Below, one piece after another: positions 2,988 through 57,648 of a stretch of 64,000 bases of DNA. Under the pieces are notes generated by a model. It made no database searches. It was not told the DNA's origin and was given only the letters and a program-made list of their open reading frames with translations. A program made the position numbers and the translations under genes. Origin of the DNA: Candidatus Omnitrophota bacterium (GTDB lineage Bacteria; Omnitrophota; Omnitrophia; Omnitrophales; Aquincolibacteriaceae); assembly GCA_016196545.1 (NCBI GenBank), contig JACPXM010000036.1, positions 483-64,482 of the forward strand, written 5' to 3'. Within the stretch, counting starts at the first letter, position 1; every line of letters begins with the position of its first letter.

Positions 2988-3003
2988 CCCAAAAGGTACC
3001 AGG

Positions 3004-3042: not shown

Positions 3043-3082
3043 GAAGGACCGGGTACCGAGGGGTTGTTTTTTGGAGTGAGCG

Positions 3083-16740: not shown

Positions 16741-16759
16741 CCTCAGAAAGGAAATCAAA

Positions 16760-40318: not shown

Positions 40319-40392
40319 CGCCCGGGACGGGACTTGAACCCGCAACTCCCAGATCGACAATCTGGTACTCTAACCAATTGAGCTACCCGGGC
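40319..40392 (-). tRNA. tRNA-Asp (GTC)
   Basis: Manual cloverleaf: acceptor GCCCGGG/CCCGGGC, anticodon arm CCAGA-TTGTCGA-TCTGG, T arm GCGGG-TTCAAGT-CCCGT, discriminator G. 3' CCA is not encoded. Confidence 0.93.
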
Positions 40393-40424
40393 TTATAGAA
40401 TGGTCAAGTAATACAGAAGCGGCT

Positions 40425-40452
40425 ATTCTAACGAATTTGATTGGAAAATCAA
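40425..40452 (-). promoter_or_regulatory. Candidate sigma-70 promoter for tRNA-Asp
   Basis: The minus strand reads TTGATT, a 16-nt spacer, then TAGAAT, ending about 32 nt upstream of the tRNA 5' end. Confidence 0.35.
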
Positions 40453-40571
40453 TGAAAGTCTGGATCCCGGGTGTGCAGGCGGCGAGTATAAAAAGCTTGT
40501 ATACACCGGGTGTGGGGGTGGTGGGACTGTATCAACGGGTAAGCGCTCCTGGTACCTTAAGACTATGGGGT

Positions 40572-41126: not shown

Positions 41127-41165
41127 CGTTTAAAATTTACCCTTAGAATTTCAGAAATGCAAGAG

Positions 41166-41242
41166 TGGTGGGCGTTTCAGGACTCGAACCTGAGACCCTC
41201 TCCTTGTAAGGGAGATGCTCTAACCAGCTGAGCTAAACGCCC
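41166..41242 (-). tRNA. tRNA-Val (TAC)
   Basis: Manual cloverleaf: acceptor GGGCGTT/AACGCCC, anticodon arm TCTCC-CTTACAA-GGAGA, T arm TCAGG-TTCGAGT-CCTGA, with ACCA encoded. Confidence 0.93.
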
Positions 41243-41246
41243 GGAA

Positions 41247-42296
41247 TCAAAGATGGTTTAAGGCATCGATTAAAAGCTTGAGACGAGCAAAATGCCGGCG
41301 GTTAAAATGTAAAACAAGCCGGATGAGGTGATGCGTATGCGGTTCATTGTCTTCTTCTTCAAAAGGTTTTTCCCACTGGCTGATTTTTCCTGTCGACAAG
41401 ATGGGAGCAAATCGGCGGTTGATCGTGCGGAGCTGGGAAGCCGTTAACTTTCTTTTAATTCGGATAATCAAATTTTGGTGAATATAACGCATCGAATGAT
41501 AATTTTTATAAAATCGCGCGATCACGCGTGCAGCATCCTCGGCATCATGCGTGAAATGAATCAGATCCATGTCCTCGTGATCAATCATTTTTCGTATTGC
41601 GAGATGTTCCACCAAATATTCCCGCCAGGCACTCCAATATTGACTTTGGGGAGGGTCGATACAGATAATTGGACGGGGTGTTGCCTTGCCGGTTTGAACT
41701 AGCGTCAGCGTCTCAAAACCTTCATCGTGTGTGCCGAATCCTCCCGGAAAAAGGACGGTTGCGTCGGACTCCCTCACAAAAATTAATTTGCGGGTGAAAA
41801 AATATTTAAAATTAATGAGCTTGCTGTCATTCGCAATGACGGGATTGGCTTCTTGCTCAAACGGCAGGCGGATATTGACCCCAAAACTATGGGTTCTGCC
41901 TGCCCCTTCATTTCCCGCGTTCATAATGCCGGAAGAGGCCCCTGTGATGACCATCCATCCTTTGCGCACCATGGAGGTTGCAAATTTTTTTGCAAGTTGA
42001 TAATCGGCGTTTTTTCGCGGGGTGCGAGCCGATCCGAAGATCGCAACCTTGCGGATATGGCGATAAGGACCAAACACATTGAACGCGTAGCGCAGCTCCT
42101 TCATGGCTGCGTTCATAAGCTTCATATCGCCGCGTTCGACGCCATCGAATCCCAGTCTTATCGCTGTTACCATCATCTCACGCATGACATCCCGCTCCGA
42201 AAAATGCCCGGTTGCGGAATCCATGAGGCGTTCAATCTGCTCCTCAAGGAGAGGATTTCCCGTGCTATAGATTTTTCGAGGATAAGGTTTTTCCAT
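41247..42296 (-). CDS. LOG-family / PpnN-like nucleotide 5'-monophosphate nucleosidase
   Basis: 349 aa. Motifs GASSGIMNAGNEG and PGGFGTHDE. Confidence 0.8.
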   Translation of the reverse strand: MEKPYPRKIYSTGNPLLEEQIERLMDSATGHFSERDVMREMMVTAIRLGFDGVERGDMKLMNAAMKELRYAFNVFGPYRHIRKVAIFGSARTPRKNADYQLAKKFATSMVRKGWMVITGASSGIMNAGNEGAGRTHSFGVNIRLPFEQEANPVIANDSKLINFKYFFTRKLIFVRESDATVLFPGGFGTHDEGFETLTLVQTGKATPRPIICIDPPQSQYWSAWREYLVEHLAIRKMIDHEDMDLIHFTHDAEDAARVIARFYKNYHSMRYIHQNLIIRIKRKLTASQLRTINRRFAPILSTGKISQWEKPFEEEDNEPHTHHLIRLVLHFNRRHFARLKLLIDALNHL

Positions 42297-42301
42297 TTAT
42301 T

Positions 42302-42970
42302 TTATTCGACTTTCAACTGGAGGATTAAATCCCCCTCGTGATGACAATGGGGGCATAATTTCCCTTGGCGTGTCAGCCTTAATTTTTGACCGCTTTTACT
42401 GCGCGCAGGAATTTTAACGGAAAGAGTTTTACCGCCGGGGATTCGAAGGGTTGCTTGTCCCCCCTTTTCCGCCTTTTCTTTTGAGATCTTTAAATTAATC
42501 ACAAGGTCAACGTCGAGAGCACTCGGTTCAGGATAATCTTCATCCTCGCTTCCGGCGGTGTAAGCTTGCGTCCATCTCCGGCGAGAAGCGCCCGCCCCGA
42601 GAAAATCCTCAAAAATATCGCCAAAATTCGCATAATTTCCTGTGGCATGAAACGTTGTTCCTCCCCGGCCTTGCGACGAAGAAAAATGACGGAGGAAATC
42701 CTCGAAATCAAATCCCTGGGCATCGGCGAAATTGCCAGCGCTGCCTCCGAAACGGCGCATTTGGTCATAGTGGCCACGGCGCTTTTCATCGCCCAAAACA
42801 TAATAGGCCTGCGAAACTTCCTTGAATTTGGCCTCCGCTTGCTTCAGATTCGCGGGATTTTTATCCGGGTGATATTTTATGGCCAGTTTGCGATAGGCCT
42901 TTTTGATCTCCTCAGGGGTGGCCCTTTCGGAAAGTCCAAGAGTTTGATAATAGTCCTTTTGAGCAACCAT
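42302..42970 (-). CDS. J-domain protein (short DnaJ/CbpA-like)
   Basis: 222 aa. J domain DYYQTLGL...[13 protein letters not shown]. No Zn-finger repeats. Confidence 0.85.
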
Positions 42971-42981
42971 GGAGAGCAGGT

Positions 42982-43299
42982 TTACCGCTTCTTAAATTCT
43001 TCCGGATGACGAAAATTAATCTCGAGCCGGCAATTTAAGGCATAGGCAATTCGGATTAAAAGACTGACATCAAAAACGAGGAGCTTTTTGGTCTCAAGCT
43101 GCTCGACGAAATTTTCATTTTCACCGATGCGCAGGCCAAGGTCTTTGCGGGACAAACCGGCCTTGAGGCGCAGCTCGATAATTCGCTCGACAATTTTTAA
43201 TTTTTCTAACTCTTCCTCAAAATCTACGTTTTTAAGAAAAGGTCCGAAAAGTTCTTCCGGTAAATCACTATTCGACTTGTTTGCATTTTCTTTTCCCAT
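42982..43299 (-). CDS. Small helix-turn-helix (XRE-like) protein
   Basis: 105 aa. [27 protein letters not shown] resembles an HTH_3 domain. Confidence 0.55.
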
Positions 43300-43315: not shown

Positions 43316-43474
43316 TTTCATTGATGAATTACTTCTGCAAAGGGAGGTGGCGGTTTCGCCCCCGTCAGTAACTTTGGGTATCCGCCTCCAGTAAAATCTC
43401 AGCTCTGGAGGGGCATTATACCAAAAAACTTCCGCTCTCGCTAAGAAACCTTCACGAATCCGATCCTGAGGGTC
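43316..43474 (-). pseudogene. Relic A: internal fragment of a large-serine-recombinase gene (C-terminal region)
   Basis: The minus-strand translation DPQDRIREGFLARAEVFWYNAPPELRFYWRRIPKVTDGGETATSLCRSNSSMK aligns with residues NPQDRIRMREAFLAKCEVFCYNGRTEVRFSWRRVPKLAEGSDTGHLHHFSVNSSFK of the intact recombinase at 55425..57272. No start codon, truncated at both ends. Confidence 0.8.
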
Positions 43475-43505
43475 TCGAAAAGGAAAAACTCGGGATGTTT
43501 AGTGT

Positions 43506-44228
43506 TCAAGAAAGTCTAAGCGCAAACTCAGACGTTTTGGTTTCACCTTCCGCCACCGTTATTTCAGCCGTCTGTGTCCCCAGTTTTTCGTGCCAAACCT
43601 CGATAGTGTAAGTCCCCGCCGGCAAATCTTTGATTTGAAAGCTGCCGTCGTCTCCGGTCACTGCATAAAATGGATGATCGAGCACATGAACATAAGAGGC
43701 CATCCAAAAGTGGACATCACAGCGCATTTTGATACCTATCTCCGGTTGCGCAAAGGTTTTGGCGGTCGTCATATCCTGTAGGGGCTGGGCGATGTTGAAC
43801 GGTTTTTCGACCTTGGATTCCGAGCGTACATTATGAAGGAGTGGATCGCTATTTCTAAAAATGACCTTTTGCCCGATCCGCGCGACGACCGCATGCGGTT
43901 CGAACATACATCCCTTTTGGTTAATCTCAACCGCTTCGCCAGGAGTGGGGGCCGTTGATGCCGGAGCGCCTTCTTTAATATAAACCAGAGCCCACTTGAC
44001 GGTTTGGTTCGGGTTGACCACCAAATCCTCTGTGACCGGCATCTTGTCACCGTGCATCACTGCGCATTGCTTTTCCGCGCCGAAGTTGAGCGGTTTGGGG
44101 GCCGGGACCTCCCCTTCAAAAATAACTTTGCCGTTAATTACGGCCGCTTGAACTGTAAGAGGCCCAACACAGCTCAATCCACACACAAGGAGCGCAAAAC
44201 CGATGTTCTTCAGTGGACTTGATCTCAT
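43506..44228 (-). CDS. Secreted cupredoxin-like protein with type-1 Cu ligand pattern plus carboxypeptidase-regulatory-like beta-sandwich
   Basis: 240 aa. Signal peptide, then ...FRNSDPLLHNV...KMRCDVHFWM (His...Cys-x2-His-x2-Met, amicyanin-like spacing). The C-terminal DGSFQIKDLPAGTYTIEVWHEKLG is typical of CarboxypepD_reg-like domains. Last gene of the nos cluster. Confidence 0.65.
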   Translation of the reverse strand: MRSSPLKNIGFALLVCGLSCVGPLTVQAAVINGKVIFEGEVPAPKPLNFGAEKQCAVMHGDKMPVTEDLVVNPNQTVKWALVYIKEGAPASTAPTPGEAVEINQKGCMFEPHAVVARIGQKVIFRNSDPLLHNVRSESKVEKPFNIAQPLQDMTTAKTFAQPEIGIKMRCDVHFWMASYVHVLDHPFYAVTGDDGSFQIKDLPAGTYTIEVWHEKLGTQTAEITVAEGETKTSEFALRLS

Positions 44229-44229
44229 T

Positions 44230-44703
44230 TCAATCCTCCCTTTTTAATTGATTCTGATTAGTTAAATTTAACAGTTCATTCCAAGCAACCAAGCGGCCTG
44301 TTTTCTCTTTGGCAAATTCCTGCGCTGCGAGATCGGACACAAAAGCCACAAAGCCATATCCCATCGGTGTCACAAGATCCGGAGAATAAACAAATAGCGC
44401 CTTTTCCCTTGCGATCCATCCCCCGCCGCTTGCATCCCGCACCCAGGAGCGAATTAAGCTCATGTTTTGATCTTTTTCGTAAACGGCGAGGCAGCCGATG
44501 TCGTCGAATTTTAGGAAATGACCGTCGTCTGTCACTGCGGCCGAGACAAACCGTTCCTCCTCAATGATCATCCGGCACTGCACGCAGAAATCGCGGCCGT
44601 AAGCTATCTTTGGCGGTTTGGTTAAATCGCGTTCTCCGCAGCCGGCAAGTGAGAAAACTGCCAAAAACACCAAGAGAATACCGCAAATTTTCAATCGGCG
44701 CAT
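44230..44703 (-). CDS. nosL: NosL copper chaperone lipoprotein
   Basis: 157 aa. Lipobox LSLAGC and CVQCRM motif. Confidence 0.85.
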   Translation of the reverse strand: MRRLKICGILLVFLAVFSLAGCGERDLTKPPKIAYGRDFCVQCRMIIEEERFVSAAVTDDGHFLKFDDIGCLAVYEKDQNMSLIRSWVRDASGGGWIAREKALFVYSPDLVTPMGYGFVAFVSDLAAQEFAKEKTGRLVAWNELLNLTNQNQLKRED

Positions 44704-45521
44704 CGGCGTCTAAAAAAAAGAAGCGCAGCACTTAAGGCTGTCAGTGTCCAAAAACACAGGACTCCTCCTAGAACCACCGCCAACCAAGGCCCAAAAACAT
44801 CCGACGCGTAAAGTCCCGCGGCGCCAAAAGATTCGATGCTTTTTTGCAGCGCTCCAATCACGGCCAATTTAAAAGACTGCGCCGGGTTAATCATGACAAG
44901 CCAAAAAAGTTCGGGAGGCGAAAGCCTCAGGACAATCGCTGTTCCCATGAGTCCCAAATCGCTTAAGAAAATAAAAGTGAACCAAAGGAAAAGCGCTGCC
45001 CCTACCGCCGTTGCTTGACGACGAGCGAAGACGGACGTGAGGAAACCCAAACTCAAAAAAGATAATCCTAGGAGCATGGTAAAGGCAACTAAATAAAGAT
45101 AATCGCTAATTTCTTGTGTGCCTGCAAAACGGGCGATGACAAGTGCGCTGGCGCCGAAACCTAAAAGAATCGTGGAAAGAAGAGCCAGGGCTGAGCCTAG
45201 GTATTTACCCAGAAATACTTCACCCGCGGTTACGGGCTGTGCCAATAGCGTAACCAGTGTTCCCTGCTCGCGCTCACCTGCAATGCTCATGGCACCCAAA
45301 AGCAAACCCATTAGAGGCACAATCAGGAGAACAAGATTTAAGAGACTCGCAGCCGTTCTGCCGAATCCGGATATCCCAAGCGAGCCCAGTCCTGCAAGGC
45401 CGAGAAGACTTAGGGAAACAGATAAAAGTGCGAAAAGAATCGAGACGACAATGAACCAGCGATTACGCCGCGCATCCCGCATTTCTTTGAAGGATAAGAG
45501 CCGTACGGCATTGAAATTCAA
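44691..45521 (-). CDS. nosY: NosY ABC-2 permease
   Basis: 276 aa with six hydrophobic segments. Positioned after nosF. Confidence 0.85.
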   Translation of the reverse strand: MNFNAVRLLSFKEMRDARRNRWFIVVSILFALLSVSLSLLGLAGLGSLGISGFGRTAASLLNLVLLIVPLMGLLLGAMSIAGEREQGTLVTLLAQPVTAGEVFLGKYLGSALALLSTILLGFGASALVIARFAGTQEISDYLYLVAFTMLLGLSFLSLGFLTSVFARRQATAVGAALFLWFTFIFLSDLGLMGTAIVLRLSPPELFWLVMINPAQSFKLAVIGALQKSIESFGAAGLYASDVFGPWLAVVLGGVLCFWTLTALSAALLFFRRRCAD

Positions 45522-46210
45522 TGTGTCCTCCTGGCGAGGTGCGGTCGAACCGAATCCGGCTGCCCCTCGGCTTTGATGACACCATTTTCCAGAATGAGGA
45601 CGCGGTCAGCATTTTTTCTTACTTCGGATGCGCGATGGGTGCAGAACACTAGCGTTTTGCCCGCGAGTCTAAGTCGATCCAGGGCGAGATTGAATTCGTG
45701 GCGGGTGTGTGCGTCAAGATTGCTGGTGGGTTCATCGAGAAAAAAAAGCGGCGGATCGGAAAGAAGTGCGATGATCAGAGCCAGCTTCTGTTTCATTCCA
45801 CCGGAGAGATTTTGTACCATCTGATGACGCGACGCTGACAGCTCCCATTCCTTTAAAAGTTTTTCCACACGCTCTCGCGCAACGCTACGAAGCTGAGCGT
45901 AAAAAGACACGGTTTCCCACACACTTTGATCTTGGTGCAAACGGATCTCCTGCGGGATATAACCGATCAAGGCGCGCGCCTCCCGGCCTTTACGCTTGAC
46001 ATTAAAGCCGTCCACTTCGACGGTCCCTTCAAACTGAATGATTCCCAAAAGACACCGCAAAAGCGTAGTTTTTCCGGCCCCGTTAGGGCCCCAAAGCGCA
46101 ACGGCTTCGCCCCGTTGCACCTCCAGGTCAACGCTTGAAAGTGCCTGAACTTTTTTGTAACGCTTACTCACTCCCGTGACCCGTATGAGCGGGCAAACCC
46201 TTTTGTCCAT
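45518..46210 (-). CDS. nosF: NosF ABC ATPase
   Basis: Walker A GPNGAGKTT, signature LSGGMKQ, Walker B LFFLDEP. Start taken at the internal ATG (MDKRV), 2 nt after the nosD stop. The track ORF extends to 46285. Confidence 0.88.
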   Translation of the reverse strand: MDKRVCPLIRVTGVSKRYKKVQALSSVDLEVQRGEAVALWGPNGAGKTTLLRCLLGIIQFEGTVEVDGFNVKRKGREARALIGYIPQEIRLHQDQSVWETVSFYAQLRSVARERVEKLLKEWELSASRHQMVQNLSGGMKQKLALIIALLSDPPLFFLDEPTSNLDAHTRHEFNLALDRLRLAGKTLVFCTHRASEVRKNADRVLILENGVIKAEGQPDSVRPHLARRTH

Positions 46211-46212
46211 CT

Positions 46213-47580
46213 TTAAAACCGATCCGAATTCTTTTTTAAGAAAGCGGCGAGCGGTAAAAAAAACAGGAACGACAGCACCCACCACGATGCGGGGCGAGGA
46301 GCGCTTTTGTTTGTGCGTATTCTGCCGGCCGGACGCATGAGCGGCCGCGGGTCTTCAAATTTAGGCGTCGGAGCAAATATCGGAAAAACCGCGGCCGCAA
46401 GGTCAATGGCTTGAGCCGAAGGACTTCCCAAAAAAATCTTAAGTTCATGAAAACGATCGGTCAAAAGCTCGAAGAATCGCATGGGTTTATAAGGGATATC
46501 ACCGATTCCATCGCGATCCGCGTCATATCCTCGATAGTTGCTCCAATAATTTCCCGTCCAGTCGTTGACCGTTTGGATGCTTGAGCCGTCCAGGAGCGTT
46601 TGCTCCACATTGTCGAGCACATAATTTCCTTCAAACTTATTTCGCACAGCGGTCGGCAAAAGATTAAAGCCGATATGATTATGCGCAATCACGTTTCTGC
46701 GACAAATCATGGCTTCACAGCCGTCCAGATAAAATCCGATTCGGTTGGAGGTAACAATATTTTCTTCAATCACCGCGTTCTTCATATCTTTAAATCCGAT
46801 TCCGAAACCGCTGGGGCCACGATTGTTCGCTACAATGTTGCCCCGTAACTTTAGTGCCTCGCTGTACATTAAATAGGCGCCCACAGAATTGTCAACGAAG
46901 CGGTTATTGACCACCTCCGCGTTACGGCAGTACATGAAATGAATGCCGTAGCGGCCTTGACGAAAATCATTGTCGCGCAACGTCATATCTTTTGAGTACC
47001 ACAGCACGACATCGCGACCACGTTCGGTACGGTTGTTTTCGATCACAACGCCGTCGCTGAACCAGACGCGGATGAGATCCCCACGCCGCGGAGTATCCAG
47101 CGCCTTGCCTTTGAAGGAATTTCCTCTGAGGACACCGCCCGGTGCCCGGCTCAGATAAACACCGAACAGCACATCCTCAAAACGGTTGTTCTCGATAAGC
47201 GGCCTGGCACCCGTTGCCAAAAGCCCCGAATTTTCGGACGCCAGAAGATCTCCAGAGTTCCTAATCACAAAACCGCGCATTACAACATCCGGGGCTTTAA
47301 TTGTGACGACGGTTCCTTTTCCCCCTCCGTCGATAACAGGCTCGCCCTGGCCCTCAAGCCGTACCGATTTTGTGATCATGAGAGGACCCGCGTAAAGGCC
47401 TTTTGTAACGAGGATGGTGTCACCCTCGGCAGCCTTTTCCAACGCCGCCGCAATCGTTGCATAAGCCGATGGGCTCACCGTTAAACTCTGAGCGTACCCC
47501 TCGTGAAGGAAACGCACGCTTGTCAGGATAAGAATAAGCGCCATACAAGGGATAACTTTTTTATTTATGGGAAGCCCCAC
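46213..47580 (-). CDS. nosD: NosD periplasmic beta-helix protein
   Basis: 455 aa. Signal peptide and repeated parallel-beta-helix units (NNRFEDVLFGVYL, NDFRQGRYGIHFMY, NRFVDNSVGAYLMY). Confidence 0.88.
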   Translation of the reverse strand: MGLPINKKVIPCMALILILTSVRFLHEGYAQSLTVSPSAYATIAAALEKAAEGDTILVTKGLYAGPLMITKSVRLEGQGEPVIDGGGKGTVVTIKAPDVVMRGFVIRNSGDLLASENSGLLATGARPLIENNRFEDVLFGVYLSRAPGGVLRGNSFKGKALDTPRRGDLIRVWFSDGVVIENNRTERGRDVVLWYSKDMTLRDNDFRQGRYGIHFMYCRNAEVVNNRFVDNSVGAYLMYSEALKLRGNIVANNRGPSGFGIGFKDMKNAVIEENIVTSNRIGFYLDGCEAMICRRNVIAHNHIGFNLLPTAVRNKFEGNYVLDNVEQTLLDGSSIQTVNDWTGNYWSNYRGYDADRDGIGDIPYKPMRFFELLTDRFHELKIFLGSPSAQAIDLAAAVFPIFAPTPKFEDPRPLMRPAGRIRTNKSAPRPASWWVLSFLFFLPLAAFLKKNSDRF

Positions 47581-48136
47581 TTTTAAAAAAACGCAAGGCG
47601 ATCACGGTTAAGGAAAGGAAGGCGGAGAGCATGCTTAGGCCGTGGCCAAGGCCGAAATTGGCGTCGGCATGAAACTGCGCAATCTTTCCCTGACCTAAAA
47701 GCGGGGGGACAAAAGGTTTTACTGAGGAACTCAACGCCGCGTGAGGATTTAGATGCAAACCAAAATCCCTCAGCCACAGATAGAGATCGACAGCAAAAAC
47801 TGCGGGTAGAACGATCGCTGGAAGGATGAAAAGCAGAGAAAACTTCCCTCGATTTAAAATCGCCAGCATCAAACAAACAACGATCACTGCGATGCCGGGC
47901 AGGGCGAATTTCTTTTCCAGCTTTGCGGCCTCTCCAAGGGGTCGCATGCCGATATAGTGATTGAGATTGTCAATCTCGCCGACATCACCCGTGACATGGT
48001 TCAAATAAACTTGGACGTGAAGTCCCTTGGGATACTGCGGTGCTTTGACCGTCAGATACCAGTAAGGAAAAAAAATTGATGAAAATACTGCTGCTGCGGC
48101 AGCCAGCAGCAGTATTTTCGCGATTCTCTCTTTCAT
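47561..48136 (-). CDS. Four-TM membrane protein between nosZ and nosD (NosB-like position)
   Basis: 191 aa with hydrophobic segments. The call rests on gene position in clade II-type nos clusters, not on a recognised motif. Confidence 0.5.
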   Translation of the reverse strand: MKERIAKILLLAAAAAVFSSIFFPYWYLTVKAPQYPKGLHVQVYLNHVTGDVGEIDNLNHYIGMRPLGEAAKLEKKFALPGIAVIVVCLMLAILNRGKFSLLFILPAIVLPAVFAVDLYLWLRDFGLHLNPHAALSSSVKPFVPPLLGQGKIAQFHADANFGLGHGLSMLSAFLSLTVIALRFFKSGASHK

Positions 48137-48138
48137 AG

Positions 48139-50157
48139 TTACTTCTTAGGCTTAACCATTAGATAACCGGCCATCTCCAAGTGCAGCGCTGAGCAGAATT
48201 CCAGACAATAATACGGGTACACACCTGGCTTATCGGCCGTGAATTCTATCGTGACGGTCTCGCCGGGCTCTATGCTGGCGGCGATGTTATAGCCGGCAAT
48301 CGAAAAACCGTGCGTCGCATCAATCGTTCGCTCAAGATTAGTGATATGCATCGTCACATGCTGGCCCTGCTTAATCTCGATGTGCTCAGGGTCAAAATGA
48401 CTGCGGATCACAGGCATGTAAACTTCGACGTTGTCGCCGTCGCGAACTATTTTGCCCTCCATAACCGCTTTGTCGCTCTTGGACTGAGTGAGAGTATTCC
48501 ATCCGACCTCAGGGTAGACATCCCAGGTCTTTAATTTATCCGCCTTGATGATCTGCGCATAGTGCGGTTCGCCCGAGCCCATCGGCATGTCATAAAGCAC
48601 CTTTAGAGTGTCACCGGTCTTCCCAATATCCACCAACTGAAGATTTTGCGGCAAGAGCGGCCCTAATTTCGAAAAACGATCCACAGACCATTTGTTGAGC
48701 GCGACCAAATACTTGCCTTCGGGATTCACCGTATCACCCCCGGTTGTGGCTAAATGCCCTATATTGAACTGAACGGGAACCTTGCCAACCAGCGTCCAAG
48801 GTTTCTCAGGCGCTTGGAATTTGTCATCGCCGAGCGTCCAGCGCGCGACAGCACTTTCGAGAAATAAACTTGTGTAGGCATAACCTTGATTGTCAAATTG
48901 AGTGTGAAGAGGTCCAAGGCCCAATTCCACCTGGGCTTCCATGGCCGCGTCGAAGCGAATGATCGGCACGCCGTACTCGTCGTTGCCCTCAAAGTCTTTA
49001 GCCTCGATGGCTTTGAGCATTTTATCAAAACTATAAATCGTCACATGCGGATCAAGTTTCCCTGCCACCACCATGAATTTGCCGCTCGGAGTGACATCCA
49101 CACCGTGAGGGCTTTTGGGCTCAGGAATGAAAAAGAGCACGCCTTCGTCAATGGCGGTCTTGAGGGAAATCAGTTTAAAGCCGTTTTTGGTCTCAAATTT
49201 GCTAGCTGCGATCAGCGCCTCGGCTTTTTTCCAATTGAAGACATGGAGATAATCCATGTCGCGCTGAGCGGTACCTGCTTCAAAAGGCGGGTTTCCCTTT
49301 TCGATACCGCCGGTGGCCATTTCAGTGTTAAAGGAATTCATAAAAACCCAGCCCTCACTCGGGCCTTTACCGGCATCGGCCAAATCCTGCCAATAGGGAG
49401 GAAGCTCGATCGCGAAAGAGTTTTCGATATCGATACGCCCTTGTTGGCGGTCGAATTTCCAGAAAGTCGCTAGTCCCCGATATTTTTCTTTGTATTGGGA
49501 AATAGGCGCGTACTCTCCGCCCAGGGGTTCGGCGTACTGTGCACCTTCGATAATATATTCGGTATTCGGCGTCACGAAACAGCCGCCGTGATCATTGTGC
49601 ATTAGCGTTCCATCCGCGAATTGTTTGGTTTCGAAATCTCTCAGATCAATGACAGCGATACGGCCATGCGACTTGTCGCCAATGAAAAGGAATTGTCCGT
49701 CATAGTCACCGTTTGTTTCGCTCAAAGCCGGGTGATGAGTGTCGGCCCATCCTACCTTCTGACTATCGCCGCCAATCGGCGCATTCATGAGCGGAGTTTC
49801 TTTCACACCAAAACCATATCCTTGCCAGGATTCAGCCTCAAAAACTGCGATGGTACGCAAAAGCCGCATCGACGGTAGGCCGATCACAAACATTTGACCG
49901 CTGTGTCCGCCGGAAGCGAACATCATATAGTCGTCATACTGGCCGCTGGGGACGAAGGTTGAAACGGCACCGAGAATGTCGTCTGGCTTAAGCCCTCTTT
50001 CATGGATGACTTTGGCAGCATCGGCTGGCAGTTTTGTCTGAAGCCCGGCCGCGGGGGATTGGGGTTCATCTGCCGCAAAACCGACGGAAACGGGCATCAT
50101 TAATAATGCAATTGTTAATAATAAAAAATCCGTGCATTGCAGGCACCCTTTATTCAT
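48139..50157 (-). CDS. nosZ: Nitrous oxide reductase NosZ, Sec-type signal (clade II-like), no cytochrome c extension
   Basis: 672 aa. The N-terminus lacks a twin-arginine. DTHHP CuZ histidines (WADTHHPAL). CuA site HGF...CLEFCSALHLEM at the C-terminus. Confidence 0.93.
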   Translation of the reverse strand: MNKGCLQCTDFLLLTIALLMMPVSVGFAADEPQSPAAGLQTKLPADAAKVIHERGLKPDDILGAVSTFVPSGQYDDYMMFASGGHSGQMFVIGLPSMRLLRTIAVFEAESWQGYGFGVKETPLMNAPIGGDSQKVGWADTHHPALSETNGDYDGQFLFIGDKSHGRIAVIDLRDFETKQFADGTLMHNDHGGCFVTPNTEYIIEGAQYAEPLGGEYAPISQYKEKYRGLATFWKFDRQQGRIDIENSFAIELPPYWQDLADAGKGPSEGWVFMNSFNTEMATGGIEKGNPPFEAGTAQRDMDYLHVFNWKKAEALIAASKFETKNGFKLISLKTAIDEGVLFFIPEPKSPHGVDVTPSGKFMVVAGKLDPHVTIYSFDKMLKAIEAKDFEGNDEYGVPIIRFDAAMEAQVELGLGPLHTQFDNQGYAYTSLFLESAVARWTLGDDKFQAPEKPWTLVGKVPVQFNIGHLATTGGDTVNPEGKYLVALNKWSVDRFSKLGPLLPQNLQLVDIGKTGDTLKVLYDMPMGSGEPHYAQIIKADKLKTWDVYPEVGWNTLTQSKSDKAVMEGKIVRDGDNVEVYMPVIRSHFDPEHIEIKQGQHVTMHITNLERTIDATHGFSIAGYNIAASIEPGETVTIEFTADKPGVYPYYCLEFCSALHLEMAGYLMVKPKK

Positions 50158-50310
50158 GATTTTGTCTCCTTTTTTTGTTTATAGTGTTTTTATTGTCGTC
50201 CACATCGGGTGACGAGTGCAGTAATTATTTTTATTGCACTTGGATTACATTCCAAGTATAGCATTGGAGATTTTAGAGTGCCTGAGAAGAGATGCGAGCG
50301 GGAACCGTGA

Positions 50311-50673
50311 TTAGAGCAGTTGAAACAACAACACTTTTTTTAGGTAATCGAAATCTATCGGCTTAGTAATGTAATCCGCCGCTCCTGCCGCAAAAGCGCG
50401 TTTGCCTTCTTCGTTATCATGTAGGGCGGTTACCATGACAACAGGAATACTTTTATCCAATTCCTTAATCTGCTTTAAAACGTCAATGCCGTCTTCTTTC
50501 CCAAGTAAAATATCCAATAAAATCAGGTCGGGCTTCGCCATTTTAATTTTTGATAGAGCCTCTTTACCTGTTAAGGAAGTTTCAACTTCGTAAGTCGTTA
50601 AAGACGTCCGTAAGATTTTCAAGACCTGTTCCTCATCATCCACAATTAAAATACGTTTCTTGTCAGGATTCAT
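50311..50673 (-). CDS. Single-domain CheY-like response regulator
   Basis: 120 aa. Motifs ILIVDDEE, LILLDILL and MVTA...K. Confidence 0.88.
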   Translation of the reverse strand: MNPDKKRILIVDDEEQVLKILRTSLTTYEVETSLTGKEALSKIKMAKPDLILLDILLGKEDGIDVLKQIKELDKSIPVVMVTALHDNEEGKRAFAAGAADYITKPIDFDYLKKVLLFQLL

Positions 50674-50779
50674 CGGCTTCTCTTTGGTTTTTAAAGTTTC
50701 GCATAAATTGCTCTGGCTCCGCCGTTAATTTCAAAATCTCATTTTCATCTAAGCAACGCTCCACGTGGAGATTGATGTC

Positions 50780-51610
50780 CTACACTAACTCGATAAGCAT
50801 TCCGTCAGGAGCGGGGCGGCCATCATGGTTCACAAGAATTTGGAGGGTAGGCCGCATAAAGGCAGTTTTTGTGACTTTCACCACTTTTCCGATGGCTTTT
50901 GTATTCAGTTGAACATACGTTCCAAGCGGAAAAAGCGAAACCACAGTAAGCAATGTTTTAAGAGGACGGCGATTAAAGCGTTGTTTTGAATCAACCGTTT
51001 CTTTGATCGCTGCATGAGGCAACATGGCATTTCGATAAGGTCGTGGATGGGATAATGCCTCATAGACATCGGCGACATGAATGACAGAAGCCAATTCATT
51101 GATTCCCTTTTCCTTCAAATGAGATGGATACCCCATACCATCGTCGTCCTCATGATGCTGCAAAATGGCATCTCTCACGCTTGAATCAATATCTTGTAAC
51201 TGATCAATGATTTCAGCCCCATGAACAGAATGCTTTTCCAGTTCCTCGCGTTCTTTTTTTGAGAATTTCACAGGACTGTTGACCAAATCAAACATCTTTA
51301 CCATACCAATATCGTGAAGCAGGGTTGCGACCGCAAGTATTTCGAGCTTTTCGCTTTCATAACCCAAATCTTGACCGATCAAAGAAGTCAAGATGACGCA
51401 ATTTACCGAATGAGCGAGAAGAAAATTATTAGGGGTAGAACGGATGCTGTATTGAAGAAAATCATCGGGACTCTGTAAGGTGTTCTGCATCAACAAATTC
51501 GCATAATCTCGAACCTCAGCGAAGATCAGATTTTCATTGCGCTTGACCTGATCAAATATCCTTTCGGCAAGATGCAGTCCTTGCGTATAAATCTCCAAAG
51601 TTCGAGTCAT
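50780..51610 (-). CDS. HD-GYP domain protein (c-di-GMP phosphodiesterase family)
   Basis: 276 aa. Motifs LLHDIGM and [11 protein letters not shown]. Confidence 0.88.
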
Positions 51611-54438
51611 GAATTTTTATCCAAAGCACTTCGCACATGTCCTGCCAAATCCATTGGCGCAAAAGGTTTCTGAACAAAATGAATGTTTGGGTCGAGTTTT
51701 TCTTGTTGGTCGATAGCGCTATCGGTATAACCCGACATAAAAACAATCTTAATCACAGGACGAATTTTTTTCACTTGATCGGCCAACTCTTTGCCCCCCA
51801 TCACAGGCATAATCACATCCGTTAAAAGAAGATGAAACTCCGTGTCAGGATGAGATTCTACAAACTTTAACGCATCGCTGCCATTGGCGGCTTCAAAAAT
51901 TCTATATCCTTGAGTCTTTAAGATTCGCACGGCAAGTTCCCGCACAAGCGGTTCATCTTCCACGATAAGGATGGTTTCGCTGCCTTTTTGAGTAACAGGC
52001 GCAACATCCTCCGCTACCCTTGATACTTTCTCTCTGACAATCGGCAGATGAAGATGAAACGTGGTTCCTTGTCCTAAAACGCTGCTAAAAGAAATGTGTC
52101 CTTTATTTTGTTTGATGACACCGAAACTCGTCGCAAGTCCCAAACCGCTACCTTTCGCTTTGTCTATGGTTGTATAAAAAGGTTCAAAGATATGCCTTTT
52201 TGTCTCTTCTTCCATCCCTATTCCTGTATCCGTGATTGAAATCAGGGCATATTCGCCAGGCTCAACATCTGGAAATTGCGCCTGAAATTTGCCGTCTAAA
52301 ACTACGTTCTCGGTTTTTACTGTAATTTTTCCACCCTGCGGCATCGCGTCCCTTGCGTTAACAAGAAGATTGATCAAAACTTGCTCAATTTGATGTTCGT
52401 CCACTTTTACAGTTCCCAATTCAGGCGAAAGCTGAGATTCAATCGTAATCGTTTCCCCAATGAGACGCTTGACCATCTTATCGAGATTGATAATCACTTC
52501 ATTCAAATTAACAATCATAGGCCGCATCATTTGCCGTCGTGAAAAACCAAGCAGTTGCGTTGTTAAGGATTGGGCGCGCTTTCCTGCTTTCAGAATTTCT
52601 TCAAAGTCATTACGGATGGCGTCATTCTGAGCTAAGGTTTGCACTCTCATCTCGGCATACCCGTTAATGACTGTTAGTAAATTATTAAAGTCATGCGCGA
52701 TTCCGCCCGCCAATTTGCCCACCGATTCCATTTTTTGTGATTGAAGGTATTGCGCCTCTAAACGTTTGCGATCGGTAATGTCCCGTATGGCCGCGGTTAC
52801 TAAGGTGCCGTCCGCGGATTCAAAGGGACTCAAACTGATTTCAACTTGAAATTCGCTTCCGTCCTTGCGAAGCGCCCACAGTTCCATCCCTGCCCCCATT
52901 GGGCGAGTATGAGGTTCTACGAAGAAGCTAGTGCGATGTTGGGGGTGATGATGGCGAAAGCGCTCAGGAATCAAAATTTCCACTTTTTGGCCCAACAACT
53001 CTTGTCGCGAATAACCAAAAAGTTGCTCCGTTTGAGAATTAACCAAAGTAATATCACCTTTTTGATCGACGATAACCATTGCATCGGGGGCGGATTCTAG
53101 GAGGCTGCGGAACTTTTCTTCCTCATTACGTATTATTTCATCCGCCTGCTTGCGTTCACTAATGTCACGGATAATCGCGGTGAAGAACCTTTTTTGATCT
53201 ATCGTCCATGAGGCAAGTGATAGGTCGATGGGAAATTCGACCCCATCTTTTCTTAATCCTACAAGTTCAAGGGTCTGACCAATCAATTTTGAAATACCTG
53301 TTGTTGTAATGCGCTTAATGCCCTCTGAGTGTGCATTTCGGAAACGTTCAGGCATAATAACTGTTAATGGCTGACCCATCATCTTTTTTGCAGCATGGCC
53401 GAATAATTTCTCGGCTTGGGGATTCCAATAGCGGATAATTCCCGTCTGATCGGCTGAGATAATAGCATCTTGTGCAGTTTCTACGACGGCTCGAAATTCC
53501 TCATTTAATTTTGAAAACTCTTTGGTTCGTTCCTCAATCTTTTTTTCTAATTCTTGGTTTACCGATATCAACTCCTGTTCAGCTTCCCAACGCTTGCTGT
53601 CTAATGTTGAAATCAAAGTTGCGCTTCTCCAGACGAGAACACTAATCACAGCACTACACATGAGAGTCAATATTGCGATGCCAAAATTAGTATCGTAGTA
53701 ACCCGCCCTTTGTCCCATTAGAGGAAGCCATCCAAGAATAACTATCAAACAGGGTATCCAGGGCAAGAGACGCCGTAGCATGATGCCTCCCAAACCATCG
53801 GCGCTGAGACGTGTCATCAATCCGTCAGAAGGTCTGCCAAAGAAGATACCGAGGCTTAAAATAAAAAAATTGATCGCTGTGTGAAAGGCTACTGAAACAT
53901 AGGGAGTTAAATGATAAAGACTCTCAACTCCATAAAAGTAACCTATCACGGCGACCCACGATGAACAGAAGAGCAAAAGGGCAAACATTTGGTGGATGAC
54001 CGCACGTTTGGACTGAAAAAAAATCAACGATGCCCCCGTCAATAAAAAATTGAAAGCAGTTGCAGGCGCCATACGGCCAGGATAAGAAATATCCTTATCG
54101 CTTCCTACAATTAGAGCCTGATCTATTCCGAAATTTAATCCGAATAGATATTCCATCAATGTTAATGCGCCTAGAGTCAATACGAAGGCTGCCAAAATCT
54201 TTGCTGCCCATTGAATATGGGTTCGTGAAGAACTCTCTTGCTGCAAAAATAAAGAAAGTCCTGCAAAAATGAACCCCATCGCGGCATTAACTTTCATGGT
54301 GGCCCAAATCGGAAGAATGCTTTTCAAAAATTCAACGTCAAAAAACCAACCGATAAGCACAAGGATGCCACTCCCCATGACCATGAGGCTTGCACTTTTA
54401 GAGACCGCTTTAAATCGCAAAACCATGTCTTTTCCCAA
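51607..54438 (-). CDS. Hybrid sensor histidine kinase (multi-TM sensor, 2 PAS, HisKA, HATPase, REC)
   Basis: 943 aa. About 8 N-terminal TM segments, PAS repeats, H-box [12 protein letters not shown]-box GSGLGLA, and a C-terminal REC ([13 protein letters not shown]). Confidence 0.9.
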
Positions 54439-54676
54439 TATATTTCTCCTTCCTGCTCATAAATGTATCGGCGCTTGTCTCATAATTTGCAGCTACATGT
54501 TTAAGGCCATGCTGATAGCTTGTTAAGCTCGGTCATGTTATGGGCTATTCGGGAGATAACGGTGCCTAACGCCTCAGTTTTTCACGAGTAAGGGAAAAGG
54601 GATACCTGGGATTTTATCGCATATACGGGAGGCCGTAGCGTGCCAGAGCGGAGGAGCCGTGCGGGGAATTAAATGC

Positions 54677-54863
54677 TCAGGAGGTGTAAGCCGGTTCGGA
54701 CGGTAAAGCAGGAATGTAATCGGTAGAAATTAAGACAAGTCGAGAGTCTTTATACTCATAGCTCTCAACTTCCAGAGGCTCGTTCTCGAACAACTGGTTT
54801 ACAATGAAAGTGGTGGAGGTGGGCGGTTTCGCCCCCGTCCGTATCTTTAGGAATCCGAAAATT
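54677..54863 (-). pseudogene. Relic B: frameshifted 3' end of a large-serine-recombinase gene
   Basis: The minus-strand translation reads NFRIPKDTDGGETAHLHHF. After a +1 shift it continues IVNQLFENEPLEVESYEYKDSRLVLISTDYIPALPSEPAYTS-stop. This aligns with RRVPKLAEGSDTGHLHHFSVNSSFKDEDLELERYVYENSQLILIERGQDA-stop of the intact recombinase. Homology ends abruptly at about 54863. Confidence 0.8.
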
Positions 54864-54908
54864 GGACCGTCAATTTTTTGCCCACGAATAACCTTCCTCC
54901 GAGCCGGA

Positions 54909-55163
54909 TCATGATTTTATTTGAGTTTCTAACTTCTCATAGAGCGACTCAGGGGCAACGTCAGCGCCATTGGGCCAAGAAATCGTTCCCCCTTCGATAC
55001 GTGCGGAAGAAAAGACTTTTTTGTCTTTGAGCGAAGAAAATATTCCGGATCTGCTTAGATACGAGGAGAAATCGATTTCACCCTTCATCCCATCATCGAA
55101 TTCGATATAGTAAATATATCCATCAAGATATCGAATCATTTTGACATCGTTTAATTGCCACAT
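54909..55163 (-). CDS. DUF2442 protein
   Basis: 84 aa. YIEFDDGMKGEIDFS...GGTISWPNGADVAPESLY is the typical DUF2442 pattern. Confidence 0.85.
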   Translation of the reverse strand: MWQLNDVKMIRYLDGYIYYIEFDDGMKGEIDFSSYLSRSGIFSSLKDKKVFSSARIEGGTISWPNGADVAPESLYEKLETQIKS

Positions 55164-55171
55164 AAGTCACC

Positions 55172-55432
55172 TCATTCCAAAGGCGTGATTTTCCTGATCT
55201 CTTTGTCCTTGCGCGCCAGCTCCCAATCCTCCGCCAACTCAGCTTGATGCAGATCAACCCATTCCCGCACAAGTCTCAAAGCCGTCCTCGACCCAAGATC
55301 ACCCATAAGAATGTTACCATGAAAATCTATCTTTGCTTGCTTGCCGCTGAACTCGGCATGAAAATGCGGGGGATTATGATCGTCGTAAAACATGCGAATA
55401 ATGATACCGAAGAATCGAGAAATTTCAGGCAT
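55172..55432 (-). CDS. DUF4160 protein
   Basis: MPEISRFFGIIIRMFYDDHNPPHFHAEF is the typical DUF4160 N-terminus. The ATG at 55432 overlaps the recombinase stop in ATGCCTGA. The track ORF starts 5 codons earlier. Confidence 0.85.
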   Translation of the reverse strand: MPEISRFFGIIIRMFYDDHNPPHFHAEFSGKQAKIDFHGNILMGDLGSRTALRLVREWVDLHQAELAEDWELARKDKEIRKITPLE

Positions 55433-57272
55433 CTTGACCTCGTTCAATCAAAATAAGTTGAGAATTTTCGTACACATATCTTTCGAGTTCTAAGTCCTCA
55501 TCCTTAAATGATGAGTTTACCGAAAAGTGGTGGAGGTGGCCGGTGTCGCTCCCCTCCGCAAGTTTAGGAACCCTTCGCCATGAGAACCTGACCTCTGTTC
55601 GGCCATTATAACAAAAGACTTCGCACTTGGCTAAGAAAGCTTCGCGCATGCGAATCCGATCTTGTGGGTTACCAATCACCACAACCTTTTGCGCCTCTGC
55701 CAGCCTTTCAAGAAATTGGCCCACTTCGGTGTCGATATTGACAGCGACCGTGGTGTGTCCGGTTGCGATCAATCCGTCCCGCTGAGCTTCCAACGTTTTC
55801 TGTCGACCCTTTAACTCTGTGACTTTATCTTCAGGTAAAGGCGTCTCAAATTTGGTGTATGCAAGGATCATGCGATCGATCTCTTTGGTAACCGACCTAA
55901 GTTCTTTTTCAATTTGCGCAAGCCGATCCGGTTTTGCGTCAAGGAAGCGGCGCATTTTTCGCTCAAGCAATTCCTTTACCTTCTCAGGCCGTATGAGATG
56001 TTGAATCCGATCCAAAATCCCATTCATAACCCTTTGATTAATAGCGTCCTGCTTCATCATCAGATTCTTGGTATCTCTGGCATGAGTCCCTTTATGTTTA
56101 TCACCTGAACATCGATAAAATTCATCAAACACGGTTTCGCCCGTGGTTTTAATAATACGCGCATATCGATGGCCATGAAAGCGGTTTCCACAAAAGCAGA
56201 CGAGCGCTCCGGCCATCAGATATTTCGTTCCGTTCATTCTTTTCCACTTTTTGCTCGAATATGATTGGAAGCGGCCTTGAACAGCGTCAAAAACTTCAGG
56301 CGAGATAATCTGCGGCACCTTTCCTTCGATCACAATCCATTCTTCTTTCGGCTTTATGCGGTCAATGAAAAATTCTAAGTCCGCACGATCAATACCCCGG
56401 TCTTTATTTTTGCGAAAAGAAGCTGTCTCGGTTCTTAACTTGCCTATTTTTACTGTTCCTTGCCCTTGCATTTGCCAGTCAAAGCAATCGACCCTCGCTC
56501 GTTTATTCCATCGAGTAACTCCCTTATAGACCGGATTCCTCAAAATTGCCCGCACCGTATAGCACGACCATCGACCGTCAGGGTTTCGATTGTGAGCGCT
56601 GTTTCTTTTCCGGGCATTCTCGCCGGATGGAATGCCTTGCTGATTAAGCCAGATCGCTATACTCTTATGTCCCCACCCCTTCAGCGACAGATCGAATATT
56701 ATTCGCACCACTTTTGCCTCCGGTTCGTAAATAATCAGCCATGTGCAATCGCTTGCATCTTTCGTTTTTCGAAACCCATAAGGCGTTACGCCGCCGACCC
56801 AACACCCCATTCTTGCTTTTCGCATCATTCCCTGAACGACTTTGCGTGCAAGTTCTCTGGAATAATCTGCTGCCATTTGACGAGCAACTGATTTATAAAT
56901 TTCGTCTGCAGAGCTCCCGTCATTTTTCAGATTTGTGAAATGAAGCTCTATTCCGAGGTCATCAAGCAAAACTTCATACCTCATCGCTTCTTTAACATCG
57001 CGCATGAAGCGATCATATTCGCCAAAAATAATCATTTGAAAGGGGCATGAAGGCGATTGCGCATCCTTCACCATTTGATGAAATACGCTTCGTTTTCTAA
57101 TCGACTTGCCACTAACAGGTTCTTCATATCGTTTAACAATTTGTGCCGGGTGCCTCCGGGCATAATCCAGAATTTCAAATTGCTGGCGCTCAAAGGAACC
57201 CTCCTGACGTTCGCAACCGTTTTCATCCTTGCCCGAAGTTGACTTACGAAGGTATACACCGGCGTTCTTCAT
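55425..57272 (-). CDS. Large serine recombinase (integrase)
   Basis: 615 aa. Catalytic N-terminus GVYLRKSTSG...RQ, a recombinase domain, a zinc-ribbon-like CFCGNRFHGHRY...YRCSGDKHKG, and a long coiled coil. Confidence 0.92.
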   Translation of the reverse strand: MKNAGVYLRKSTSGKDENGCERQEGSFERQQFEILDYARRHPAQIVKRYEEPVSGKSIRKRSVFHQMVKDAQSPSCPFQMIIFGEYDRFMRDVKEAMRYEVLLDDLGIELHFTNLKNDGSSADEIYKSVARQMAADYSRELARKVVQGMMRKARMGCWVGGVTPYGFRKTKDASDCTWLIIYEPEAKVVRIIFDLSLKGWGHKSIAIWLNQQGIPSGENARKRNSAHNRNPDGRWSCYTVRAILRNPVYKGVTRWNKRARVDCFDWQMQGQGTVKIGKLRTETASFRKNKDRGIDRADLEFFIDRIKPKEEWIVIEGKVPQIISPEVFDAVQGRFQSYSSKKWKRMNGTKYLMAGALVCFCGNRFHGHRYARIIKTTGETVFDEFYRCSGDKHKGTHARDTKNLMMKQDAINQRVMNGILDRIQHLIRPEKVKELLERKMRRFLDAKPDRLAQIEKELRSVTKEIDRMILAYTKFETPLPEDKVTELKGRQKTLEAQRDGLIATGHTTVAVNIDTEVGQFLERLAEAQKVVVIGNPQDRIRMREAFLAKCEVFCYNGRTEVRFSWRRVPKLAEGSDTGHLHHFSVNSSFKDEDLELERYVYENSQLILIERGQDA

Positions 57273-57603: not shown

Positions 57604-57648
57604 CCCAGCCTCCTTTCCTGTAAGCGAATTTCTTTACCTTGCGGATAA

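Follow-up and report, generated by a model that had tools for sequence, protein, structure and literature searches.

A clade II nos cluster within a probable tandem array of serine-recombinase elements at the tmRNA gene of an Omnitrophota bacterium, with the attachment site in the recombinase 3′ coding end

The stretch of DNA discussed here, hereafter the window, comprises 64,000 nucleotides (nt) of contig JACPXM010000036.1 from a Candidatus Omnitrophota bacterium (assembly GCA_016196545.1). We focus on the part in which a gene for a large serine recombinase (LSR), two incomplete copies of the 3′ end of such a gene, and a nitrous oxide reductase (nos) gene cluster lie close together; all genes between 40 and 64 kb are on the minus strand, and so are the features listed below. 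The intact LSR is 615 amino acids (aa) long and is encoded at 55425..57272. It matches the Pfam families Resolvase (PF00239, E 1e-16) and Recombinase (PF07508, E 2e-22), and its best match in the PDB is the SPbeta LSR (E 4e-10). Residues R9, S11, and T12 in the N-terminal catalytic domain are invariant in an alignment of 39 LSR sequences, as are C359, C361, and C388; with PF13408, annotated for most of the homologues, and long helices predicted at 408-503, the C-terminal part agrees with the zinc ribbon and coiled coil expected of an LSR. Approximately 42 homologues are close, after which the scores fall from E-126 to E-18.

A preliminary description of this DNA had noted three co-oriented copies of the LSR 3′ end, and tblastn, a repeat search, and pairwise DNA alignment agree that these copies are real. 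With the 615-aa LSR as query, tblastn finds the first incomplete copy, relic A, at 43349-43498 (aa 527-578, 50% identity, E 9e-11), and the second, relic B, at 54728-54847 (aa 570-609, E 0.002) and, in another frame, at 54807-54902 (aa 559-583, E 0.03). An independent repeat search of 43-64 kb also ranks the three co-oriented ends as its largest direct-repeat family, with a repeat unit of 50 nt over which B is 84% identical to the intact gene and A 70%, ungapped. At the DNA level, A aligns with the intact gene over approximately 139 columns, from aa 527 to a short core sequence, and B aligns with it from approximately aa 567 through the tail that follows the core. The homology of relic A thus runs upstream of the core and that of relic B downstream, and their common part is limited to 43 nt (43 alignment columns, 38 of them identical, plus one 1-nt gap). 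The 24/25 identity reported earlier for the A and B cores falls inside this alignment. The accompanying contrast between a 96% identical core and surroundings with 50% identity has to be abandoned, because A and B overlap in these 43 nt only and the two figures come from different pairs.

The 24-nt core has no further copy anywhere in the 64-kb window, where GGTGGAGGTGG occurs at 54812 and 55529 only. A repetitive extragenic palindrome was considered as an explanation of the core and rejected, since the core is not dispersed within the 64 kb. The hairpin GGGCG-GTTT-CGCCC, which had been put forward as a conserved site, is confined to A and B; the rest of the family has unrelated sequence at this position, and we rejected the hairpin as a feature of the family. 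It may loosely mimic the T-arm, although its loop of 4 nt distinguishes it from a tRNA-like one.

The shared core, CCACCTCCACCA, is identical to the 3′ terminus of transfer-messenger RNA (tmRNA) and does not represent a protein motif. It matches the 3′ end of the Rfam tmRNA consensus (CacCUCCACCA) and the real tmRNA 3′ end in L028, one of the loci of relatives (designated L001 and onward) that were compared with the window. Over 12-18 nt the core is identical to the last tmRNA nucleotides, CC[A/G]CCTCCACCA, and it bears the G3:U70/A73/CCA signature of an alanine-accepting tmRNA terminus. The DNA of five genome loci has CC(A/G)CCTCCAC(CA) at the core position. At the protein level, the family aligns well as far as W(R/Y)(R/K)xPxV; approximately eight residues further on, HLH(H), PPP, or STS(T) follows, and CCACCTCCACC, read in its three frames, gives HLH, PPP, and STS. 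The core is read as HLH in 12, as PPP in 17, and as STS in 9 of the 38 family proteins that could be classified. The 2-81 residues after it are unrelated between proteins, except where the tail is present. Its retention in all three frames shows that the core is selected as DNA, which supports the earlier proposal of a conserved DNA site as opposed to a coding constraint.

These data also bear on the possibility that the three copies are decayed duplicates of one gene end, in which the core was kept for an important peptide and no recombination site exists. A and B do resemble the intact C-terminus at the protein level. However, a core that is read in three frames and followed by unrelated sequence already contradicts this explanation; moreover, the segment encoded by the core is predicted to be disordered in an AlphaFold2 (AF2) model, and the core is repeated at the ends of tmRNA genes. 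We consider that mere duplication has virtually no chance of being correct.

Two relatives carry complete elements. In L004, a metagenome-assembled genome (MAG) of the Planctomycetia, ARAGORN identifies a tmRNA gene (ssrA) at 2618-3004 (Rfam, 147 bits), which lies 7 kb upstream of the LSR gene in the same orientation; a 12-nt repeat, CCGCCTCCACCA, is present at the tmRNA end and inside the LSR 3′ end. L028, a metagenome contig, is arranged as L004, with the tmRNA at 2755-3152 (Rfam, 145 bits) and an 18-nt repeat, CCCTCCACCTCCACCATT, at the tmRNA end and the LSR end. The order in both is full tmRNA gene, core, approximately 100 nt of tail, cargo, LSR, core, and host flank. Rebuilding the junction of the excised circle, by joining the LSR and its core to the sequence that follows the tmRNA gene, gives an open frame in both cases. 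The product ends in ...ARLHHIESKPEDMVEECYEYRDCALVPA and a stop codon for L004 (tail ...HIESKPEDMVEECYEYRDCALVPA, HLH frame), and in ...APSTSTIPIVNWLEETEVETYRYQNGELVLVTR and a stop codon for L028 (tail ...IPIVNWLEETEVETYRYQNGELVLVTR, STS frame). The two junctions use different frames of the core and yet encode the same conserved tail, and the integrated forms end in unrelated C-termini while the rebuilt circle forms carry this tail. The in-frame rebuilt junctions together with the repeats of the tmRNA end place the attachment site of the element (attP) inside the LSR 3′ coding end and identify the 3′ end of ssrA as the chromosomal site (attB). A recombination site within the integrase's own 3′ coding end, as proposed from the window, is therefore confirmed by the coding junctions of L004 and L028.

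At every junction the site has the same layout. An AGTTTAC-like motif is found 17-18 nt to the 5′ side of the core and a GTAAAC motif 7-8 nt to the 3′ side of its 12 nt, and the dyad centre of these motifs coincides with the 5′ edge of the block of attP/attB identity. LSR attP sites span approximately 50 bp and have a central crossover dinucleotide, and the position of the dyad centre gives the layout expected of such a site.

The tail has the motif (E)xExYxYxxxxLxL(V/I) with the stop codon directly after it. It is present in the window LSR, after the core in relic B (core B), in L020, L024, L026, and L049, and in the family proteins P0002-4, P0017, and P0028, the last of which reads it in the PPP frame. 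In the AF2 model of the window LSR (mean pLDDT, the predicted local distance difference test score, of 79), long helices at 408-503 are followed by a hairpin at 547-566, the disordered, core-encoded linker at 572-591, and a beta-hairpin at 594-611, which corresponds to the tail. In three comparisons of tails, codon differences that are synonymous only and those that change the amino acid number 6 vs 4, 6 vs 7, and 9 vs 20. These data show that, in this family, the tail beyond the att site is real coding sequence, conserved at the protein level and in frame in all three core frames.

We read the locus as a tandem array of three integrative elements (E1, E2, and E3) at ssrA, all inserted via one LSR family with attP in the LSR 3′ end, and we put the probability of this reading at about 85%. 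What can be read directly from the DNA is how the site is built, that its core is tmRNA sequence, that the tail is in frame, and that the flank is syntenic. In the proposed mechanism, an attP within the integrase 3′ coding end, with AGTTTAC-like and GTAAAC half-sites approximately 19 bp either side of the centre, would recombine with attB at the ssrA 3′ end. The product would be ssrA-core-tail-cargo-LSR-core-host flank, and the element would restore the tmRNA 3′ end on integration. The integrated LSR open reading frame (ORF) would run through the displaced core into host DNA, losing its tail of approximately 25-35 residues and gaining an arbitrary end, while the excised circle would encode the full-length protein. 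This exchange of tails on integration would explain the odd, variable C-termini annotated for these recombinases. A newcomer would use the restored ssrA end and push older elements downstream, and the junction between two elements (P arm-core-P′ arm) would mimic the integrase 3′ end and resupply a tail to the newcomer's integrase. The LSR, probably with a small serine recombinase as for the CcrA/B and DsiA/B pairs (discussed below by analogy), would catalyse the reaction, and the exchange of tails would change its activity or directionality. The expected order of the array would then be ssrA-core-tail3-E3-LSR3-core-tail2-E2-(LSR2)-core-tail1-E1-(LSR1)-core-flank, and the window would hold the part from E3 onward.

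The junctions in the window can be assigned on this basis. E3, the newest and intact element, extends from 55.5 kb to beyond 64 kb, and its junction with E2 lies inside the LSR ORF. The aligned junctions place the P arm of the E3 att site at 55540..55575 (TTCCTAAACTTGC..., encoding VPKLAEGSDTG); it is followed by core I (CCACCTCCACCA, 55528..55539), which equals the tmRNA 3′ terminus and is read HLHH, and by tail I (55425..55527), the P′ arm left by E2. Tail I encodes FSVNSSFKDEDLELERYVYENSQLILIERGQDA and a stop codon in frame with the LSR, whose last 34 codons lie beyond the core, and it is homologous to the sequence directly after the tmRNA gene in L004 and L028. E2 (54823-55527) is a mini-element, a remnant of approximately 0.7 kb with approximately 40 nt of LSR P arm. 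Its cargo (54909..55447), between core I and core B, is a toxin-antitoxin-like pair of DUF4160 (55172-55447, Pfam E 1e-19) and DUF2442 (54909-55163, E 1e-14). The LSR 3′-end remnant of E2 (54823..54902) shows DNA homology over the last approximately 40 nt, to 54863 (RIPKDTDGGETA), and a weak protein match to 54902. Core B (CCACCTCCACCA, 54811..54822) forms the E2/E1 junction and is followed by tail B (54677..54810), the P′ arm of E1, which is in the STS frame, encodes TSTTFIVNQLFENEPLEVESYEYKDSRLVLISTDYIP..., and shows 78% DNA identity to the first 87 nt of L049. The part before core B and the tail after it derive from two elements that read the core in different frames, and this is the origin of the apparent +1 frameshift, which had been taken for a mutation. 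E1 (43351-54810, 11.5 kb) runs from a kinase gene to the nos genes and ends in 150 nt of LSR remnant. This remnant, relic A (43351..43498, equivalent to aa 527-578), is the P arm of the outermost scar and is followed by core A (CCACCTCC, 43343..43350), which is decayed, with a 1-nt deletion before it and ACCA lost. In the array, core A is the displaced original ssrA 3′ end, and relic A is the outermost attR, adjoining the native flank.

Serial accretion at one locus, as suggested in the preliminary description, is retained; the idea that each element landed in the 3′ end of the previous integrase is replaced, since L004 and L028 identify ssrA as the target. An integrase 3′ end serving as attB for self-targeting accretion would fit the position of cores I and B in or beside integrase 3′ ends, and the homology at B does stop near the neighbouring genes. 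However, at the far end of the single element in L004 and L028 there is a full-length tmRNA gene and not an integrase fragment, the core equals the tmRNA 3′ terminus, and the integrases of L001, L002, and L054 adjoin plain chromosomal flank with no second integrase nearby. Moreover, the P-core-P′ junctions are attP-like, and LSRs normally do not recombine attP with attP; the junctions have this form because any tandem array of such elements must produce it. Self-targeting is accordingly a highly improbable account of the locus.

Beyond the outermost scar, synteny with relatives delimits a native flank (40319..43299). It comprises the helix-turn-helix (HTH)-like ORF105 (42982-43299), a DnaJ-like gene (42302-42970), a LOG/lysine-decarboxylase-like gene (41247-42296), tRNA-Val (41166-41242), and tRNA-Asp (40319-40392), with a receiver/Fis-HTH protein (response regulator) encoded between the two tRNAs. 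In L001, L002 (with a 47 nt spacer), and L054, which carry single elements, the DnaJ-like and LOG-like genes and tRNA-Val/Asp come directly after the LSR core; because the same genes abut the core there, the flank after relic A is chromosomal. In L049, the closest relative, ORF104-DnaJ-LOG is syntenic and 72% identical in nucleotides to the window flank. We considered ORF105 as the remnant of a fourth element and rejected it, given its 83% amino-acid identity in the native flank of L049.

Arrays with decayed junctions are typical of the family, as judged from L049 and L024/L025. The L049 contig starts exactly at a core and a tail that is 78-81% identical to tails B and I; a mini-element with a membrane ORF and NTP_transf_2/HepT follows and ends in approximately 40 nt of P arm and a decayed core. 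There are no nos genes in L049 and no tmRNA gene in L049-L051. The start of L049 illustrates that the core repeat breaks assemblies. The same effect may have ended the source contig, which exceeds the window by 482 nt, at the core nearest to ssrA. L024/L025 has four cores (322-352, 11736, 11818, and 12404), and the flank after the last of these is 84% identical to the attR flank of L028. A tmRNA gene at L024 site 340 was rejected: only approximately 31 nt of tmRNA-like T-arm are found, with an Rfam score of 11.6 bits that is below threshold, and no tmRNA body. The first core of L024/L025 may be a fragment displaced from another island, one that inserted at a more 5′ position in ssrA.

In the window, the integrase-less units E2 (54823-55527) and E1 (43351-54810) lie between cores, beside E3 with its integrase, and positions 1-1205 of L049 are analogous. 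The two independent mini-elements (window 54823-55527 and L049 1-1205) are each composed of a tail, a toxin-antitoxin-like pair, an LSR half-site of approximately 40 nt, and the next core. That no more than the half-site was kept suggests that these are cis-mobilizable units and not products of random decay.

Several observations weigh against the array at ssrA. Neither ARAGORN nor Rfam detects a tmRNA gene in the window; the ssrA end of the array is placed by comparison with relatives, and ssrA must then lie right of 64000. At the other end, core A has decayed, and the original ssrA trailer cannot be demonstrated in the sequence that follows. Both complete elements come from outside the lineage of the window (L004 from a Planctomycetia MAG, L028 from an unclassified metagenome contig), and ssrA is not seen at the Omnitrophota-type loci (L001-L003, L031, L037, and L054), where the elements are longer than the DNA covered. 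A search via DnaJ homologues for an empty site, with ssrA followed by the DnaJ flank, found none; L049 is occupied, and L050/L051 are not syntenic. E1 has no remaining mobility gene and is compositionally composite. Finally, IMG/VR contains no member of the LSR family, and a viral origin was considered and rejected.

The DNA between relics A and B has the gene content listed in the preliminary description. The regulatory part of E1 (50311..54438, Pfam), with a GC content of 0.42-0.44, encodes a PAS hybrid histidine kinase (51607-54438), an HD-GYP-type HD protein (50780-51610), and a CheY-like receiver (50311-50673). It is followed by the nos module (43506..50157, Pfam) with a GC content of 0.50-0.51, comprising nosZ of the Sec-type/clade II (48139-50157), ORF191, nosD, nosF, nosY, nosL, and a gene for a CarboxypepD_reg protein (43506-44228). 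The interval between A and B is thus composite, the flank having a GC content of 0.48 and E3 of 0.45. The 191-aa ORF between nosZ and nosD (47561-48136) has no Pfam match. The nosD and nosF ORFs (45518-47580) overlap by approximately 70 nt; a single fused product is called in L052 (869 aa) and L053 (941 aa).

The nos cluster was suspected earlier to be cargo of an older, decayed element, and it does lie inside accreted DNA, between the E2/E1 junction at core B and the outermost scar at relic A next to the conserved flank. Being wholly within the array, it lies in DNA that was inserted between ssrA and the native flank, and it probably arrived as cargo of E1 as opposed to being inserted into the array later. 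The closest NosZ homologues are 83-89% identical, and the named ones (69-73%) are mostly from Omnitrophica; on these sequence matches, the transfer of nos may have taken place within the phylum. L052 and L053, with a NosZ identity of 79-83%, have nosZ, nosD/nosF, nosY, and CarboxypepD_reg in unrelated neighbourhoods; a NosL Pfam match is found in L053 only, and a separate ORF191 equivalent is called in neither. No LSR, core, or tmRNA is found near nos in L052 or L053, so these loci offer no sign of nos travelling together with this LSR elsewhere.

An alternative is that nos was not brought by an LSR element. The array would then be a permissive, fast-changing region into which nos and/or the regulatory genes entered later, by homologous recombination or with another element since lost. 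The GC step from 0.50-0.51 (nos) to 0.42-0.44 (regulatory genes) within one interval is in line with later entry, as is the finding that, apart from the relics, there are no mobility genes between A and B; moreover, the nos module of L052 and L053 is largely the same and has no LSR, core, or tmRNA near it. On the other hand, the interval is bounded exactly by a P′ tail (at B) and a P arm with core (at A), as for one element, and the cargo of the family is very diverse, including type I restriction-modification (L020), a D5-like primase-helicase (L022), and TrbI with an outer-membrane efflux protein (OEP; L054). We regard later entry as the less probable course, albeit one that deserves serious weight. 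In this locus, a complete clade II nos cluster stands within an Omnitrophota ssrA island stack, which is concrete evidence for N2O-reduction capacity in horizontally acquired DNA of an uncultivated phylum.

The preliminary description was aware of no described system of this type. Precedents nevertheless include the ssrA islands of Dehalococcoides [McMurdie et al. 2011, BMC Genomics 12:287 (PMC3146451)] and the presence of attP inside int also in Mx8 and in SSV-type integrases. The Dehalococcoides islands are arranged in tandem downstream of ssrA and bounded by 20-bp ssrA repeats; they encode the serine recombinases DsiB (approximately 540 aa) and DsiA (approximately 200 aa), and the 3′ end of dsiB always overlaps the att site. 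The authors speculated that a complete dsiB exists only when the island is a circle or has another island next to it, and they read integrase-less islands as cis-mobilizable elements (PMC3146451). The window family shares with these islands the tandem arrays after ssrA, the direct repeats of the ssrA 3′ end, the position of the integrase 3′ end over the att site, the combination of a large serine recombinase with one of approximately 200 aa that has the catalytic domain only, and the divergent C-termini. The cargo in both includes genes for anaerobic respiration, rdhA/vcrABC in Dehalococcoides and nos here.

The differences from the Dehalococcoides islands are several. The dsiB gene lies beside ssrA (attL) and antisense to it, whereas the LSR gene of the window family is at the distal attR and co-oriented with ssrA. 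Insertion in Dehalococcoides is in the T-loop with a 20-bp repeat, and in the window family at the acceptor 3′ strand/terminus plus ACCA with 12-18 nt. For Dehalococcoides, a functional coding role of the region beyond the site was considered unlikely, in contrast to the conserved in-frame tail here. The accessory genes (ParB, Mom, and tRNA-like sequences vs primase, helicase, and ORF108) and the hosts (Chloroflexota vs Omnitrophota/Planctomycetota) also differ; ParB and Mom are not seen in the visible part of E3, and no Dehalococcoides protein is among the 120 LSR matches listed. By its orientation, its sublocation in ssrA, the tail, the nos cargo, and the phyla, the window family is a variant set apart from the DsiB/DsiA islands as described in print.

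Among tyrosine recombinases, the integrase of phage Mx8 (IntP/IntX; Tojo et al. 1996 and Magrini et al. 1999, as summarised in PMC6070905) also has attP within int. According to that summary, integration yields a recombinant int with a new 3′ end and an altered but still active integrase; unlike the window LSR, it belongs to a tailed phage and uses a pair of attB sites in M. xanthus, not ssrA. The "suicidal" integrases of the archaeal SSV type carry attP inside int as well, and self-disrupting integrases have been called exclusive to archaea (review, PMC8371274). There the gene is split into two inactive halves, while the window LSR is merely given a new tail. The BPs repressor gene contains attP in another tyrosine recombinase system (PMC4557955). 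Mx8, SSV-type, and BPs recombination all rely on tyrosine recombinases, in contrast to the serine recombinase of the window. The same is true for the t(m)RNA islands of the Williams type (Islander/TIGER), which use tyrosine integrases and otherwise resemble the window family in regenerating the target, leaving the displaced 3′ fragment at the far end, and forming tandem arrays.

Paired serine recombinases are familiar from CcrA/CcrB of the staphylococcal cassette chromosome SCCmec, and with the cis-mobilizable elements (CIMEs) of streptococcal integrative and conjugative elements (ICEs) they form a further parallel. These systems, which are also cited in PMC3146451, share with the window family paired serine recombinases, a target at the 3′ end of an essential single-copy gene, and composite tandem arrays in which some units lack an integrase and are bordered by att sites; they differ in their target (rlmH/orfX or fda, not ssrA) and in an attP outside the recombinase ORF. 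The use of t(m)RNA genes by serine integrases was called previously unreported and needing proof in a 2020 survey, which predicted 14 cases among 297 (PMC7192596). The elements described here provide a well-supported, sequence-resolved case of LSR use of the tmRNA gene, which that survey treated as unreported and the 2011 Dehalococcoides study had proposed.

The coding tail turns the speculation about DsiB into a testable hypothesis, namely integration-dependent control of a serine integrase. As a tentative extension, which we think rather doubtful, the C-terminal beta-hairpin might be an integration-state switch, with the full-length protein produced only from the circle or in a tandem array and the solitary integrated form truncated. 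If so, the position of the site in the gene would control activity or directionality, instead of or beside a separate directionality factor, and in an array the newest integrase would be re-armed, and older cargo, nos included, could be co-mobilised. The family would in any event offer a natural system for the integration-dependent remodelling of a serine integrase, which is relevant to LSRs as genome-engineering tools.

The remainder of E3, which starts at 57277 and continues past the window end, was annotated with Pfam and PHROGs up to 64000. It encodes ORF108 (57277-57603), a small serine recombinase of 196 aa that has the catalytic (resolvase) domain only (57649-58239), a Dda/Pif1-like helicase (58625-59923), a 579-aa protein without assigned function (60536-62275), DUF5659 (62283-62597), a CHC2 primase zinc-ribbon protein (62509-63171), and a 242-aa protein without assigned function (63252-63980). 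No capsid or conjugation genes were seen in the visible part of E3, which resembles an integrative element equipped with a replication module of its own. A family element in L054 (553-3111), adjoining the DnaJ/LOG flank, encodes TrbI and an outer-membrane efflux protein, and some family members may accordingly be conjugative.

A counterpart of ORF108 with 40-55% identity is located directly upstream of the LSR in L020 and L024, and L020 has the same trio as E3 of small resolvase (193 aa), short ORF, and LSR. A small serine recombinase with the catalytic domain only and a conserved ORF of approximately 95-108 aa are found directly 5′ of the LSR in the window (57277-58239), L020 (8916-10004), and L024 (9846-9977). 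Both are candidate accessory factors, namely a CcrA/DsiA-like partner and a directionality factor. A scan for promoters and terminators around the junctions gave nothing above the shuffled expectation. Elsewhere in the window, the AT skew peaks at 0.27-0.31 over 14788-17209, which covers a gene for a VWA/TPR protein (14788-16740) and a yqeY-like gene.

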